Below, in pieces: positions 28,198-37,347 of a DNA stretch of 56,078 nt. The notes below the pieces were generated by a model that did not search any database, was not told the DNA's origin, and saw only the letters and a program-made list of their open reading frames with translations. The stretch's first letter is position 1. Each line of letters begins with the position of its first letter. A program made the translations under genes and the position numbers. Origin of the DNA: a virus (taxonomy: Duplodnaviria > Caudoviricetes); the IMG/VR virus record IMGVR_UViG_3300028126_000005, positions 1 to 56,078 of that record, one strand, 5' to 3'.

Positions 28198-28388
28198 TAT
28201 TTAGTTAAAAGTTCTTTGATAGCACTCTCTACTACTTGTTCTAATACTTCTTGTTTATCAATATCCAAGTATTCTACAAGTTTATGAGAAATAATATTAG
28301 AAAGGTTAGATATATCTTTTTCAGATAGTCCTAACTCTTCTTTGTGTACTATTCTGTTATTCTCAAGGATTATTTTAAGTAACTTCAT
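28197..28388 (-). CDS. Small protein with MKLLKIILE leader
   Basis: 63-aa ORF with the shared leader. Confidence 0.65.
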   Translation of the reverse strand: MKLLKIILENNRIVHKEELGLSEKDISNLSNIISHKLVEYLDIDKQEVLEQVVESAIKELLTK

Positions 28389-28389
28389 T

Positions 28390-28662
28390 TTATCTGTCTT
28401 TACGTACTATTCTAACTATTTCTCCTCTATCATCATCATCTACATGGAAAACTTCATAGTCGCCTATTTGCTGTCCATGGTACTTATCGCCAAAATCTAA
28501 TAAATCTTGCTGAGTACCTTTTACGTCAATTCTTCTATGCTCACTACCAGGAAATCTTAAATCAAAAGATAGTCGAGGAAATTTTTCTGCAAATTTATTA
28601 GCAAGATTAATTAAAAAGACATCTTCTTTAGCTTCCGATAAAATGATGTTAGATAGTTTCAT
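28390..28662 (-). CDS. Small protein with MKLSNIILSE leader
   Basis: 90-aa ORF with the shared leader. Confidence 0.65.
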   Translation of the reverse strand: MKLSNIILSEAKEDVFLINLANKFAEKFPRLSFDLRFPGSEHRRIDVKGTQQDLLDFGDKYHGQQIGDYEVFHVDDDDRGEIVRIVRKDR

Positions 28663-28849
28663 TTCGTTTTAATAGTTCTTTTATAATAACGTTTTTCTTT
28701 TTAGTCATATTTTTATCTTCTAGCATCTTCTTTAACTCTACTGTAGATGTTCCAGCTGTAGTAGTATGTTCCCATGACCACTTACTAGTCATCTTTCCTC
28801 TGTCATCTCTAACGTATTTTTTAACCGATGGTTTTAACTTTACTGGCAT
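28649..28849 (-). CDS. Small basic hypothetical protein
   Basis: Start moved to ATG 28849 (MPVKLKPS), 2 nt after the stop of the Cys-rich microprotein. Confidence 0.65.
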   Translation of the reverse strand: MPVKLKPSVKKYVRDDRGKMTSKWSWEHTTTAGTSTVELKKMLEDKNMTKKKNVIIKELLKRNETI

Positions 28850-28851
28850 AA

Positions 28852-28917
28852 CTAACAATCGCAGCAATTGCAGTTGCATGACTTATCACAGTTACAGACT
28901 CTACAATTACATTTCAT
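28852..28917 (-). CDS. Metallothionein-like microprotein MKCNCRVCNCDKSCNCNCCDC
   Basis: Hand-translated, below the ORF-track cutoff: 21 aa, 9 Cys in CxC/CC motifs; fills the gap between two genes. Confidence 0.75.
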   Translation of the reverse strand: MKCNCRVCNCDKSCNCNCCDC

Positions 28918-29170
28918 ATATTTTTACTTTTAAATTTCCTGTTCCTTTTAAAAGACGGTGATACGTCTCTTTTGGTATAAATAGTTTGTTTTCCGTTAAT
29001 CTCTTCGGAATTTCGTTATCCATTTGAAACATCCAATCTGTATCATGCATTGCTTGAACTACCCTATCTTTTTTATCTCTATGCCATACTAATTCAAATG
29101 TTGGCGTATCAGAAGAAAATTCTCTAATAAAAAAGTTTTTACTTTTTATATCTTTATAAGGTTTAGTCAT
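28907..29170 (-). CDS. Small cupin-like protein
   Basis: WHRD...W.FQ...FIPKETYHRL two-motif cupin pattern. Confidence 0.7.
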   Translation of the reverse strand: MTKPYKDIKSKNFFIREFSSDTPTFELVWHRDKKDRVVQAMHDTDWMFQMDNEIPKRLTENKLFIPKETYHRLLKGTGNLKVKIYEM

Positions 29171-29979
29171 AATATTGTTCTATCAATATAAGAATTTAAT
29201 TTCACTTTACCGTCTATTTCTTTAAGTAATGTTTTAATCAATTTTTTATTTTTGAACTTAGCCCATCCGTTTAGATGAATGTATTCATTTCCTTTTATTC
29301 GATTAGTAAATTTATAATCTATATTGAATTTATAACATAGAGATGTAAAATAATACTGACAGATAACAGTTGATACTATTAGCCCTTTTGGTATAAGCTG
29401 TTCTATAGGTTCTATATTCTCTAAATAATAGTCTCTCAAGTTATAATATGAATCTAAAAATAAATTCTTTACTGACTCATTATTAAACTGAAGGATTCCG
29501 ACATTAAATAAATAATTAGGTATAAAAGAAAAATTACTAAACTGAGTTTGTATATTATGTTTTCTAAAAATATTAATAATTTTAAATAATGATTCTGTTT
29601 GCCAAGGTGAATCAGGAACGAATAGTTCTTTTTGCTCTAATATAATGTCTGCTGATTCTATAGTTTTTAGTTTTTTACTTAATATTATATCTCCGTCTAT
29701 AGTAACTGCTCCTAGTTCTTCTTGAGAGTGAATATAAATCTTTAAATCATCAGTAATAATTAAATCTAAATCATCTACGTTTACACTTGTGTCATAAAAT
29801 CCTTTTAGATACTCTAATGAATAAGAGCAACCATAAAACTTTACAGTATGTCCTAGATGCTTTGCTCTTTGCATAGAAACTTTATATAGGTCTAATACAT
29901 GATTATTTTTATCTAAAACAGTGTACCTGCCGCCTCCATAGTCTCCTATATTCTTAGAAAAGCTAAATATTAGTTTCAT
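29167..29979 (-). CDS. GT-A glycosyltransferase-like protein (DUF6734-like)
   Basis: K..I...TIDGDIIL (DxD), NVGIL, YIHL; paralogous to the next ORF. Confidence 0.6.
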   Translation of the reverse strand: MKLIFSFSKNIGDYGGGRYTVLDKNNHVLDLYKVSMQRAKHLGHTVKFYGCSYSLEYLKGFYDTSVNVDDLDLIITDDLKIYIHSQEELGAVTIDGDIILSKKLKTIESADIILEQKELFVPDSPWQTESLFKIINIFRKHNIQTQFSNFSFIPNYLFNVGILQFNNESVKNLFLDSYYNLRDYYLENIEPIEQLIPKGLIVSTVICQYYFTSLCYKFNIDYKFTNRIKGNEYIHLNGWAKFKNKKLIKTLLKEIDGKVKLNSYIDRTIL

Positions 29980-33787: not shown

Positions 33788-36580
33788 TTAGAATCCGCAG
33801 ATTAATCCGAATGAGAATACTCCGCTACCATTTGTATCTCCACCCTTAACACCGTTGGATATATACTCATTAGTAACTAAAGTAGTTCCATTAGTTTCAT
33901 AAACTGTACAACCTTCAGTTAAAGTATCAGTAGTTAATTTTAGAGTTTCTCCTCCATCATTATTAAAGTCATCACAAGCTCCGCTTTCACTTACTGTAGA
34001 TCGACCTACGGTTACACTATATAAAGTTAATGAATTACCAGTCGGTGTAGGAGTCTGAGTTGGTGTAGGTGTCGGTGATGCTGGAGTTGATCCGTAAGTA
34101 CCGCAATCTCCGTCAGTAGTAAATTCTGAACCATTCCAGTATTTCCATATTTCACCATCAGAATAGTATCCTGCAGCAGCATGATCATCAGCTAGACAAG
34201 TATCAGCGTCATATAAAGTATCTGCTGTTGATAACTCTGTACTGTCAATATAGAATGTACTTGGATCATTTACATAATCATCACATGCTAAACCATATGT
34301 AGCTCCATTTCCTAAACTAACTTCAACGCAAGACGTTTGAGATGGAGTAGGTGTAGGTGTTTGAGTCTTAGTAGGAGTGTTTGTAGGTGTTGGTGTCTGA
34401 GTATTAGTTGGTGTTGGAGTAGGTGTAGTTTCTGTACAACAAGTAATTCCTGTACTTACAACTCCAGCTGCACTATATCCGAAGTAAGTATTTTGAGGAC
34501 CAACTCCACAAGTACCAGAAACGTCTACATAACTAACATATCCTCCACCAGATAGTTTAGTTGTACCAATATAAAGATCATCTCCTATTTCTGGGTAACT
34601 ATTACTTCCTCCATTAGCTACTGACTTAACTAAGGTTAAAGTTTTCTGTTTAGTACCATTTCCAATAGCTTCACAAGCTAACCCTCCAGCTGCATCTCCT
34701 CCTGATGTAGTCGTTATAGGACCGTTAGATGAGAATACATCTATAGAGTACTGAGCTCTCGATGGAGTTGGTGTTGGAGTTGGTGTATTTGTAGGAGTTT
34801 GAGTTTGTGTAGGCGTTACAGTATTAGTTGGTGTATTAGTTGGAGTCTGTGTATTAGTAGGGGTATTAGTAGGAGTATTAGTTGGTGTCTTTGTAGGCGT
34901 TTGTGTATTCGTCGGAGTATTCGTCGGAGTATTCGTCGGAGTATTTGTAGGCGTTACAGTATTAGTAGGAGTGTTTGTTGGAGTATTTGTAGGCGTTACA
35001 GTATTAGTTGGAGTATTAGTTGGAGTATTAGTTGGTGTATTTGTAGGCGTAGGCGTATTCGTTGGAGTATTAGATGGAGTTGAGGTATTAGTAGGTGTTT
35101 GAGTCGGTGTTTGAGTCGGTGTCTTTGTAGGTGTTTGAGTTTGAGTAGGTGTATTTGTAGGAGTACCAGTTGGAGTACCAGTTGGAGTTGGAGTTTGAGT
35201 TGGAGTATTAGTCGGAGTATTAGTTGGAGTACCAGTAGGTGTTGCTGTAGGTGCAGATTCCTCTGTTACTATTATATCAAAGCTACAGTCTAACGTAGGT
35301 GTAGGAGTACCTGTTGGTGTTTGTGTTTGAGTCGGTGTTTGAGTAGGAGTATTAGTTGGTGTACCAGTTGGTGTACCGGTAGGTGTTCCTGTTGGAGTAT
35401 TAGTCGGTGTGCTAGTCGGCGTACTAGTAGGTGTTGAGGTATTAGTCGGTGTTTGAGTCGGTGTTTGAGTCTGAGTATTAGTCGGAGTCTGAGTTGGAGT
35501 ATTAGTTGGAGTATTAGTTGGTGTTGGAGTATTAGTAGCTGTAGGTGCTGGTTCATCATCTACTTCTATTTCAAAACTACAATCTAGAGTCGGTGTTGGA
35601 GTTGGAGTGCTAGTATTAGTCGGTGTAGGTGTATTAGTCGGAGTATTTGTAGGCGTACCAGTCGGAGTACCCGTTGGTGTTCCTGTCGGAGTATTGGTCG
35701 GAGTGCTTGTAGGTGTTCCTGTCGGAGTAGCAGTTTGAGTTGGTGTGCTAGTTGGCGTAGGTGTATTAGTTGCAGTTGGTGTTGGTTCATCATCTACTTC
35801 TATCTCAAAGCTACAGTCTAATGTAGGTGTAGGAGTGTTAGTTGGAGTATTAGTAGGTGTAGGTGTATTAGTAGCTGTTTGCGTAGGAGTTGGTGTGCTC
35901 GTTGGAGTTGGTGCAGGTTCGTCATCTACTTCTATTTCAAAACTACAATCTAGAGTCGGTGTAGGAGTATTAGTTGGTGTTTGAGTTGGTGTAGCAGTAC
36001 TTGTAGAAGTCGGTGTTGGAGTAGGAGTATTTGTTGCTGTTGGAGCAGGTTCGTCGTCCACTTCTATTTCAAAGCTACAATCTAGAGTTGGTGTTGGAGT
36101 ATTAGTTGGAGTTGCAGTACTAGTAGGTGTTGGAGTTGGTGTTCCAGTTGGTGTTGGATCTGGTTCATTGTCTACATCTATTTCAAAGCTACAGTCTAAT
36201 GTTGCAGTTGGTGTAGGGGTATTAGTTGGAGTGTTAGTTGGTGTAGGTGTACCTGTCGGTGTATTACTAGGTGTATTAGTAGGGGTACTAGTAGACGTTG
36301 GAGTATTAGTTGGAGTATTTGTAGGCGTTGGAGTATTGGTTGGAGTTCCTGTTGGAGTATTAGTTGGTGTTTGAGTTGGTGTTTGAGTTGGTGTACTTGT
36401 ACTAGTAGGAGTTGCTGTACTAGTAGGAGTTACTGTTGGAGTATTAGTAGGAGTAGGTGATGGTAATATAACAGGTATATTGTCACCAAACAAGTATACA
36501 TTATTACTTATATCAGCTATCTGTTCTTTTTTAGCTTGCTTATAAACTATGAGTGATGATATGTTGTTACTAAATCCCAT
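33788..36580 (-). CDS. Mucin-like Thr/Pro-repeat fibre/adhesin with three Cys-bounded C-terminal domains
   Basis: 930 aa, mostly (TP/TN/TQ/TG)n, interrupted by six LDCSF[ED]IxV units. Confidence 0.8.
34760..36461 (-). repeat. Coding low-complexity Thr-x repeat with six interspersed ~40-bp [13 protein letters not shown] units
   Basis: Degenerate gttggagtatta-type periodicity; units at approximately 35260, 35550, 35785, 35920, 36050 and 36160. Confidence 0.9.
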
Positions 36581-37347
36581 TAAAATCCTCCTTGACAGTC
36601 ATAAATATAAATTACATCTCCAGGTCCGTCTCCTACTGTATCGTCTACTCTTAGGAATGAATTTACATCAGTTCCTGTAGCTGAGCTACTATCGAATGCA
36701 TAATAGGTATTAGGTGATGGTGTACAAGTATCATTTGTAAATACAGTCATAGTTCCTCCTCCGTCTAAATAAGCTTGAGTTGGAGGCCATGAACCGCTGT
36801 AGTCAGTATATAATACTTGAGCTATAGTTTCCATACAAGCTCCATTAAAGATAGTTTCTAGAGAAGCACTAAATGCTGTAGCATAGCATAGTGAACTATT
36901 ACTAGGAGTTGGTGTTGGTGTTGAAGTACCTGTAGGTGTTTGTGTAGGTGTTACTGTAGGTGTATTAGTTGGTGTTTGAGTTGGAGTTGCACTATTAGAC
37001 GGAGACGGAGGAGTACTTGTAGGCGTACCAGTCGGAGTATTTGTTGGAGTACTAGTCGGTGTACCAGTTGGTGTACCAGTTGGTGTTTGTGTAGGGGTAT
37101 TAGTTGGAGTTTGAGTAGGGGTATTAGTTGGAGTTTGAGTTGGTGTACCTGTCGGTGTAGGTGTTGGTGTAGGAGAAGGTAAAGGAGTAGGTATATTATC
37201 TCCAAATAAATATACAGTAGCGTTAGTACAGAACTTTTTAGACGCTTGGTAGTGTGAAATTACTAGATCTTGTTGTACTAGTTTTTTAAACGCTGAGTAT
37301 GAAGCATTTTCATTAAATCGATTCTCTATATTTTTGAATGAACTCAT
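36580..37347 (-). CDS. Short Thr/Pro-repeat fibre paralogue
   Basis: Shares [18 protein letters not shown] with the 930-aa ORF; one Cys-bounded C-terminal domain. Confidence 0.78.

Follow-up and report, generated by a model that had tools for sequence, protein, structure and literature searches.

Metallothioneins are recognized, under the operational criteria of Kagi and Binz–Kagi, by low mass, a high content of cysteine (Cys) in CxC, CC and CxxC motifs, few aromatic or histidine (His) residues, and metal-thiolate clusters. The beta-domain of the vertebrate and crustacean proteins, about 30 residues long, is part of a two-domain animal protein and holds an M(II)3Cys9 cluster. Plant metallothioneins are 45–80 residues long, and among bacterial examples SmtA, BmtA, the Pseudomonas metallothionein and MymT all exceed 50 residues; in SmtA, which adopts a fold of zinc-finger type, His residues serve as ligands, and the SmtA/BmtA family pairs Cys with His ligands over a length of about 55 residues. 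Zn3Cys9 clusters are described in PMC3447885 from metallothioneins as well as from CXC and pre-SET domains, and the shortest metallothioneins cited in PMC4755600 are fungal, with 26 amino acids (aa) and seven Cys. According to PMC7387436, only two bacterial metallothioneins had been functionally investigated before the Pseudomonas study, while metallothionein genes are mentioned among the auxiliary genes of phages from metal-polluted soils (PMC12917443, citing Huang et al. 2021) and of fumarole viruses (PMC13317609). The present analysis concerns a 21-codon open reading frame (ORF) with nine Cys codons, termed here the microORF, in IMG/VR virus record IMGVR_UViG_3300028126_000005; the whole record, 56,078 bases with a completeness estimate of 34 %, is referred to as the window. 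The microORF is a genuine conserved gene under purifying selection on its peptide frame.

28852..28917, minus strand: nine-Cys microprotein ORF, phage type; 21 codons plus TAG, product MKCNCRVCNCDKSCNCNCCDC

The microORF starts with the ATG at 28917 and stops with the TAG at 28854–28852, on a strand that the preliminary description of this DNA had left unstated. As that description had it, the product comprises 21 residues with nine Cys and no aromatics, in the layout C3-x-C5-xx-C8-x-C10-xxx-C14-x-C16-x-C18-C19-x-C21. A profile of the family, run against the whole viral record, finds a single copy (E 2.2e-7). The window was simulated 200 times with a first-order Markov model, and the maximum number of Cys in any 21-codon stretch was 5 (131 runs), 6 (64 runs) or 7 (5 runs), against the nine observed. 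Cys composition alone was nevertheless rejected as evidence for a gene, because a second 21-codon stretch with nine Cys is found in the window as an off-frame reading of a repeat region at about 35–37 kb. That region (34700–37200) consists of long imperfect repeats with periods of 6, 12 and 24 nucleotides (nt), with the plus-strand unit AGTTGGAGTATT; in our reading its reverse complement would encode a Thr/Pro/Asn-rich repeat protein on the minus strand, and its off-frame readings yield spurious Cys-rich ORFs.

The case for a gene is carried instead by conservation. An unforced set of relatives was obtained by fetching viral stretches through the neighbouring gene for an 87-aa protein, rather than through the Cys frame itself, and using the best 80 of 259 such stretches. 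Flanks of 90 nt or more were available for 78 loci; in these the microORF lies directly behind the 87-aa gene in 22 cases and is absent in 56, and a 23rd locus (L030) carries it at the very end of its contig; the synteny for which the preliminary description had proposed to look thus holds for part of the loci and fails for the remainder. All the neighbour-derived ORFs have nine Cys, with identical spacing over 21 aa in 21 of the 22, the sole exception (L058) being a 20-aa variant that still has nine. Across 100 aligned relatives the nine Cys columns are invariant and the length is 21 residues throughout, the phage consensus being M-K-C-[ND]-C-x-x-C-x-C-G-x-S-C-x-C-x-C-C-x-C. Further members were gathered with degenerate DNA patterns, which detect the exact 21-residue architecture only: the viral pattern forces nine Cys, Lys2 and Asn/Asp4, and a looser one, run over species-representative cellular genomes, fixes the ATG, the nine TGY codons and the end codon. 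In the unforced set, which holds 15 distinct sequences, TGT and TGC are mixed at 7 of 9 Cys codons (the exceptions, Cys5 and Cys8, use TGT throughout) with zero nonsynonymous change at Cys, and in the pattern-derived sets they are mixed at all nine positions; the conserved Cys with synonymous variation that had been put forward as a check are therefore present. At the non-Cys codons, nonsynonymous over synonymous rates (dN/dS) are 0.324/1.304 in the unforced, 0.398/1.006 in the phage and 0.472/1.149 in the host sequences, giving ratios of about 0.25–0.4. Start codon, stop codon and length are all kept across the family, and Ser13 is retained by 74 of the 85 phage copies and by 25 of the 30 host copies. 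Synonymous turnover, zero loss of Cys and the retention of start, stop and length together argue that selection acts on the peptide and not on a DNA or RNA repeat.

Set against the operational criteria for metallothioneins, the family is of low molecular mass (21 residues, with the one 20-aa variant), very rich in Cys in CxC, CC and CxxC motifs (9 of 21 residues) and nearly devoid of aromatics and His. Over 101 distinct peptides, 909 of 2121 residues are Cys (42.9 %), with no Phe, no Trp, one Tyr and one His, which bears out the metallothionein-type traits, including the CxC and CC motifs, that had been noted at the outset. The non-Cys residues are mainly N, K, D, S, T and G, small and polar, and neither a signal nor a leader sequence is seen. 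The peptide shares nine Cys, CxC motifs, small polar spacers and a lack of aromatics with the beta-domain of vertebrate and crustacean metallothioneins; it differs in being a free-standing 21-residue product of bacteria and phages with no detectable homology to that domain. Compared by description with the fungal family-8 Cu-metallothioneins of Neurospora crassa and Agaricus bisporus, it is likewise a very short, gene-encoded, Cys-rich peptide for which a single cluster is predicted, but it is shorter (21 versus 26 aa), has more Cys (nine versus seven) and shows a CC doublet and a different spacing. Like SmtA/BmtA, the Pseudomonas metallothionein and MymT, it would be a bacterial cytoplasmic, Cys-rich, metal-sequestering protein, although it is far shorter and only one of the 101 members has a His, and that a single one. 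The metallothionein genes of phages reported from metagenomes share with it the idea of phage-borne metal sequestration; those, however, are annotation-based assignments to known families, whereas the 21-aa family belongs to phages of open seawater and is invisible to annotation.

Pfam, PHROGs and NCBIfam gave no significant match to the microprotein (NCBIfam, 0 of 101 members), and the bacterial metallothionein models, Pfam's Metallothio_Pro included, matched none of the 101 in Pfam (at E <= 10) or NCBIfam. The only matches were to plant metallothioneins: Pfam PF01439 (Metallothio_2) was hit weakly by 16 of 101 members, with a best E of 0.52, below significance, and a profile search of the PDB returned wheat Ec-1 (2kak) as its sole match, at a non-significant E of 4.6. 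The Ec-1 alignment runs over C-x-C-G-x-x-C-x-C stretches, and these matches are driven by Cys spacing, the plant proteins having spacer regions that the microprotein lacks. An exact lookup of 10 peptides among some 15 billion predicted proteins found none, in keeping with the expectation that standard gene callers would miss the ORF. As for the literature, no paper describing the peptide was found in the library searched, and six peptide strings were unmatched in its full texts. Two small-protein catalogues (PMC12856327, PMC11364881) contain neither 'cysteine' nor 'metallothionein' in their main text, while their supplements could list the family, and searches on metallothioneins of phages and Flavobacteriia yielded only general references to auxiliary genes that annotation had labelled 'metallothionein'.

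In marine Flavobacteriales the family also sits on the chromosome, a fact that the preliminary description missed. The cellular scan matched 35 stretches, of which 32 are family members. All carriers are uncultured, being metagenome-assembled genomes (MAGs) or single-amplified genomes labelled Cryomorphaceae, Flavobacteriaceae, Flavobacteriales, Marisimplicoccus, Bacteroidota or uncultured Bacteroidetes, and they are small (1.2–1.4 Mb), with several copies lying on contigs of 0.2–1.1 Mb. Among the stretches set aside, a 21-codon ORF in a Clostridiaceae MAG (L221:7231–7296, MDCPCVCCPCICCCCCCCCCC) matches the pattern as a poly-Cys string and does not belong to the family, while L226 and L231 were dropped on failing a stricter expression that requires a true stop codon. 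In 15–21 of the 32 loci the gene order is a Na/Ca-exchanger on the opposite strand, a gene for a 119-aa protein, the microORF about 30 nt further on, 300–440 nt of non-coding DNA, a gene for a 141-aa lipoprotein-like protein, and pirin; in the others the microORF adjoins tRNA genes, glutamine synthetase, flavin mononucleotide (FMN) reductase, an M20 peptidase or glyoxalase. Such housekeeping-type neighbours on long contigs argue that the host copies are chromosomal and not prophage-borne. The family profile was positive in 22 of 34 genomes of one genus, whereas even samples of the family and the order gave 1 of 151 and 1 of 301, in each case the query genome itself; many of the genomes in these three sets are incomplete.

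The non-coding stretch behind the host microORF (L210:4039–4330 and its equivalents in about 20 host loci) is itself conserved. It holds AAAGTTATTAACAATTT, a promoter-like TTTG...TTTATAAAA and small hairpins, with a terminator-like hairpin in L210, and matches nothing in Rfam at E <= 0.2; the stretch may represent a small RNA or a long leader of the lipoprotein-like gene. In other host loci a small hydrophobic protein of membrane type abuts or overlaps the microORF stop (0 or −1 nt), with 53 aa in L209, L216 and L229 and 44 aa in L218, L222 and L232, two unrelated families each kept in three genomes; in L214 a 36-aa protein of the same type starts 4 nt past the stop. A Flavobacteriaceae MAG holds a phage-type copy (L227:5935–6000, with Gly11 and Val7) among genes on the same strand. 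This contig probably derives from a phage and was binned with the MAG, or else represents a prophage, and the copy, being phage-like and having N bases at codon 2, was excluded from the codon statistics.

Phage and host copies are two distinct types. Gly11 is found in 76 of 85 phage copies and in none of 30 host copies, and host copies begin M-D in 21 of 30 cases, whereas phage copies begin MK and a search of viral contigs for the M-D pattern found none. Net charge is +0.36 in phages versus −1.31 in hosts. In a nearest-neighbour test confined to the nine unforced variable positions, 96.5 % of sequences had a nearest neighbour of their own class, against a maximum of 71.7 % in 500 label shuffles. 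This separation argues that the phage version is an old, separately evolving branch rather than a series of recent captures.

In viruses, the degenerate DNA pattern located the microORF in at least 119 contigs, and the viral sets combined hold 85 distinct DNAs encoding 72 distinct peptides. At least five unrelated arrangements of flanking genes occur among the 85 versions:

Context 1: behind the small cupin gene (the gene for the 87-aa protein), as in the window
Context 2: between a gene for a 280–444 aa protein and one for a 163-aa protein
Context 3: in front of a gene for a 430–480 aa Rossmann flavoprotein of flavin adenine dinucleotide/nicotinamide adenine dinucleotide (phosphate) (FAD/NAD(P)) type
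Context 4: behind a T4-type prohead protease (PF03420)
Context 5: between genes for 100-aa and 79-aa proteins, on contigs of higher GC content (0.38–0.43)

With presence/absence polymorphism (the 22 of 78 cupin loci above), several contexts and a chromosomal homologue in marine Flavobacteriales, the phage copy is an accessory ('moron' or auxiliary) gene with a host homologue. Where the cupin gene precedes it, the microORF overlaps that gene by 11 nt or through a 4-nt ATGA, and the next gene usually begins 2–4 nt past the stop; junctions this tight are consistent with translation inside an operon. Where the microORF is missing, the slot behind the cupin gene is taken by the next conserved gene or by a 45-aa basic protein. 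The latter, very basic and conserved (MAKGLTLGNY...KKRPGVHAKSKTSKLK...), often occupies the slot in L008, L010, L012 and about 15 more loci without the Cys ORF, and in 5 loci it lies downstream of that ORF. A nucleotide search of 50,697 phage records matched the window only to Flavobacterium phages (genus Immutovirus), which are 72 % identical to it over the cupin gene and nowhere else. The microORF was not found in them; Flavobacterium phage immuto (160 kb), checked whole, has no copy, and at the corresponding position it has two ORFs for small membrane proteins. A tblastn search of the same records with the 21-aa peptide gave no match, a result that is uninformative on cultured phages because the low-complexity filter probably masked the query. 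For two other phage contexts, the search for cultured relatives returned only one uncultured phage record together with distant Campylobacter and faecal phage dehydrogenases, and yielded no clue to the hosts.

A hairpin lies 12–21 nt past the microORF stop in L099 (714–746) and in 17 other distinct viral versions, about 100 nt ahead of the gene for the flavoprotein of context 3. Its 5-bp stem shows covariation at 3 of 5 pairs and is paired in 100 % of cells, with a score attained in 0 of 500 shuffles, and its 9-nt loop reads ATTCATAGC without variation. A comparison with Rfam gave no family for the hairpin, which could act as a terminator, bind a protein or mark the border of a cassette.

On balance, the microprotein is probably a translated, minimal metallothionein-like metal-thiolate peptide, with its nine Cys arranged around one small cluster. 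Favouring this reading are the 43 % Cys content, the near absence of aromatics and His, the weak matches to metallothioneins, and a number of thiolates equal to that needed by Zn3Cys9. Translation, metal binding, the stoichiometry, the metal (Zn, Cd or Cu(I)) and the physiological role are inferred. The invariant thiolates of a cytoplasmic 21-residue peptide would wrap a single cluster of a type such as M(II)3Cys9 or the Cu(I)-thiolate clusters of metallothionein beta-domains. The host type is a near-core chromosomal gene in one genus of streamlined (about 1–1.4 Mb) marine Flavobacteriales, and the phage type an accessory 'moron' gene across several lineages of low-GC marine phages, where the peptide may buffer, store or supply Zn and Cu (the latter perhaps to metalloproteins of the phage), or shield against Cu, Cd or oxidants, during infection. 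A broader proposal is evenly poised between true and false: that this is the smallest gene-encoded metallothionein, representing a new family of streamlined marine Flavobacteriales and their phages, whose phage copy, an auxiliary gene of a new kind, would give phages control over the trace metals (Zn, Cu, Cd) of the cell they infect where seawater is poor in metals. Several points weigh against a metallothionein. In the host and phage loci scanned, no metal transporter, metal regulator or resistance gene lies beside the microORF, which weakens the case. To our knowledge, nine Cys within 19 residues are packed more tightly than in the nine-Cys clusters described so far, which may put a strain on a single M3S9 cluster. 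There is no significant similarity to any curated metallothionein family, and sequence kinship to an established one did not emerge from Pfam, NCBIfam or the PDB profile search. Furthermore, the sequences free of gathering bias are the 15 distinct ones of the neighbour-derived set only, most viral sequences having been gathered by pattern, and the RNA evidence given below consists of assembled contigs, not reads, from RNA libraries, which can contain DNA.

Many small phage early proteins bind host proteins, and the peptide might similarly be a structural zinc-cluster mini-domain, a small regulator or inhibitor that acts by binding to a protein or a nucleic acid and in which the metal is a scaffold only. 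The fixed differences outside Cys, such as Gly11, and the opposite net charges of the two types could then reflect different partners. Zn3Cys9 does form DNA-binding or structural modules in the MSL2 CXC and pre-SET domains as described in PMC3447885, but the CXC fold given there needs about 50 residues. With non-Cys positions that are rather free (dN/dS 0.25–0.4, and most of them occupied by several kinds of residue), leaving little conserved surface, and with no conserved neighbour pointing to a partner, this explanation is unlikely. A thiol-rich redox buffer, oxidant scavenger or reservoir of cysteine and sulfur, to which metals would not be central, would suit a Cys content of 43 %, the presence of FMN reductase, glyoxalase and pirin among host neighbours, and the link in one phage lineage to a downstream FAD/NAD(P) flavoprotein with an N-terminus resembling pyridine-nucleotide disulphide oxidoreductases. 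Bulk thiol chemistry, however, does not call for a strictly fixed number and spacing of Cys; moreover, the match of the flavoprotein is confined to about 40 residues at its N-terminus, the protein has no sequence relative in the PDB, and the linkage exists in part of the loci only, which makes such a role rather improbable. The suggestion in the preliminary description that the peptide is a Cys-rich substrate of the adjacent enzymes was rejected, since linkage to the cupin is unconserved: the ORF is carried by only 22 of the 78 cupin loci and stands in at least five unrelated neighbourhoods.

Regulation of the next gene by a Cys-rich leader peptide or upstream ORF, sensing the supply of Cys-tRNA and itself functionless, would account for a very short product rich in one amino acid, for its tight junction with the next ORF in many loci, for the conserved hairpin behind it in one phage group and for the conserved non-coding stretch in hosts. 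We nonetheless regard a leader as very improbable. The downstream genes are unrelated (at least 10 families) and none serves cysteine or sulfur metabolism, so that no constant biosynthetic operon is found; the hairpin, a simple one restricted to one subgroup, has an invariant loop and no visible alternative pairing with the ORF; and the number of Cys, their spacing and the length are invariant, with Ser13 largely retained. We know of no leader peptide with such a pattern. Equally hard to credit is a precursor of a modified or disulfide-rich secreted peptide, whether a ribosomally synthesized and post-translationally modified peptide, a bacteriocin or a toxin. Its small size and Cys content would fit, as would the 36–53 aa membrane proteins directly behind some host copies, but the number of Cys is odd, the neighbourhoods are unconserved, 21 residues leave no room for a leader and none, nor any signal sequence, is present, and no radical-S-adenosylmethionine enzyme, lanthipeptide or other maturase and no exporter occurs among the neighbours scanned with Pfam. 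Finally, that the microORF is no gene, being either an ORF arisen by chance or a TGY-AAY repeat element in DNA or RNA, is suggested by the repeat-like sequence and by the off-frame repeat elsewhere in the window with nine Cys per 21 codons; the idea is effectively refuted by the codon data, since codons turn over synonymously while no Cys is lost, non-Cys codons vary, and start, stop and length are kept in over 100 distinct phage and cellular sequences, and it retains a vanishingly small probability.

If the metallothionein-like reading is right and the peptide binds metals, the family is new and the size limit of gene-encoded metallothioneins would drop to 21 aa from the 26 residues of the fungal forms once cited as the shortest, with a peptide short enough to be synthesized as a model of a nine-thiolate cluster. 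An unannotated trace-metal gene would be added to abundant, uncultured marine Flavobacteriales with genomes of 1–1.4 Mb, where the retention of a 66-nt gene in streamlined genomes argues for its importance. Marine phages would carry their own diverged version, tying infection to cellular quotas of Zn, Cu and Cd and to the cycling of trace metals in the ocean. The microORF is, in addition, a clean case of a conserved gene overlooked by every standard pipeline.

In the window the microORF is flanked on the same strand by the following genes:

28907..29170, minus strand: small cupin gene, 87 aa; its last 11 nt, at the 3' end, overlap the microORF start
28649..28849, minus strand: gene for a 66-aa protein; its ATG, at 28849, lies 2 nt past the microORF stop; 7 viral relatives

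The overlap with the stop of a cupin gene and the 2-nt gap before the next ATG, both in the preliminary description, were borne out. The 87-aa protein has no match in Pfam, PHROG or NCBIfam; a confident AlphaFold2 model (predicted local distance difference test score 85.8) gives a minimal cupin barrel with invariant His30, Asp32 and His71, and with the small cupins 2i45, 2opk and 2ozj and HppE as top Foldseek matches in the PDB (E about 1e-4). The protein is encoded in the 259 viral stretches. The 66-aa protein is without a match in Pfam and PHROG. A longer reading of its gene, 76 aa from 28879 and overlapping the microORF, was rejected as unconserved; relatives start 2–3 nt past the microORF stop (3 nt in L003 and L004), which agrees with 28849 as the true start. 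Besides the cupin, the candidate metalloproteins encoded in the window are a zinc-ribbon primase and a 2-oxoglutarate-Fe(II) oxygenase. The upstream motif to which the preliminary description drew attention, TATTTATA, is indeed present at 28983..28976 on the minus strand, 59–66 nt ahead of the microORF ATG, but it is not distinctive, its 22 copies in the window being at chance level (15.5 +/- 4.2 in shuffles). A sigma-70 promoter scan, whose coverage leaves out Bacteroidota promoters, found no minus-strand match near the microORF.

Parts of the region 28300–29300 occur in 21 public sequencing runs, 19 of them recorded as RNA (seawater, marine and estuary metatranscriptomes, mostly from 2018), although these 19 may stem from one campaign. 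In each of the four seawater RNA libraries in which coverage was examined, contigs identical to the window span the entire microORF. One contig (X1) extends to 29074, and the other three end shortly before the microORF ATG, at 28938 (X2), 28935 (X3) and 28931 (X4).

28931..28938, minus strand: ends of RNA-library contigs in 3 of 4 libraries, 14–21 nt upstream of the microORF ATG

In the same four runs 29100–29800 is nearly uncovered. These contig ends and the uncovered stretch, which are no proof of a transcript boundary, give a weak hint of abundant RNA starting just upstream of the microORF, weak because of the nature of the contigs and libraries noted above. Just upstream of the three contig ends, at 28953–28968 within the 3' part of the cupin gene, lies a 5-bp hairpin (AGACG...CGTCT), followed by TTTT on the minus strand.

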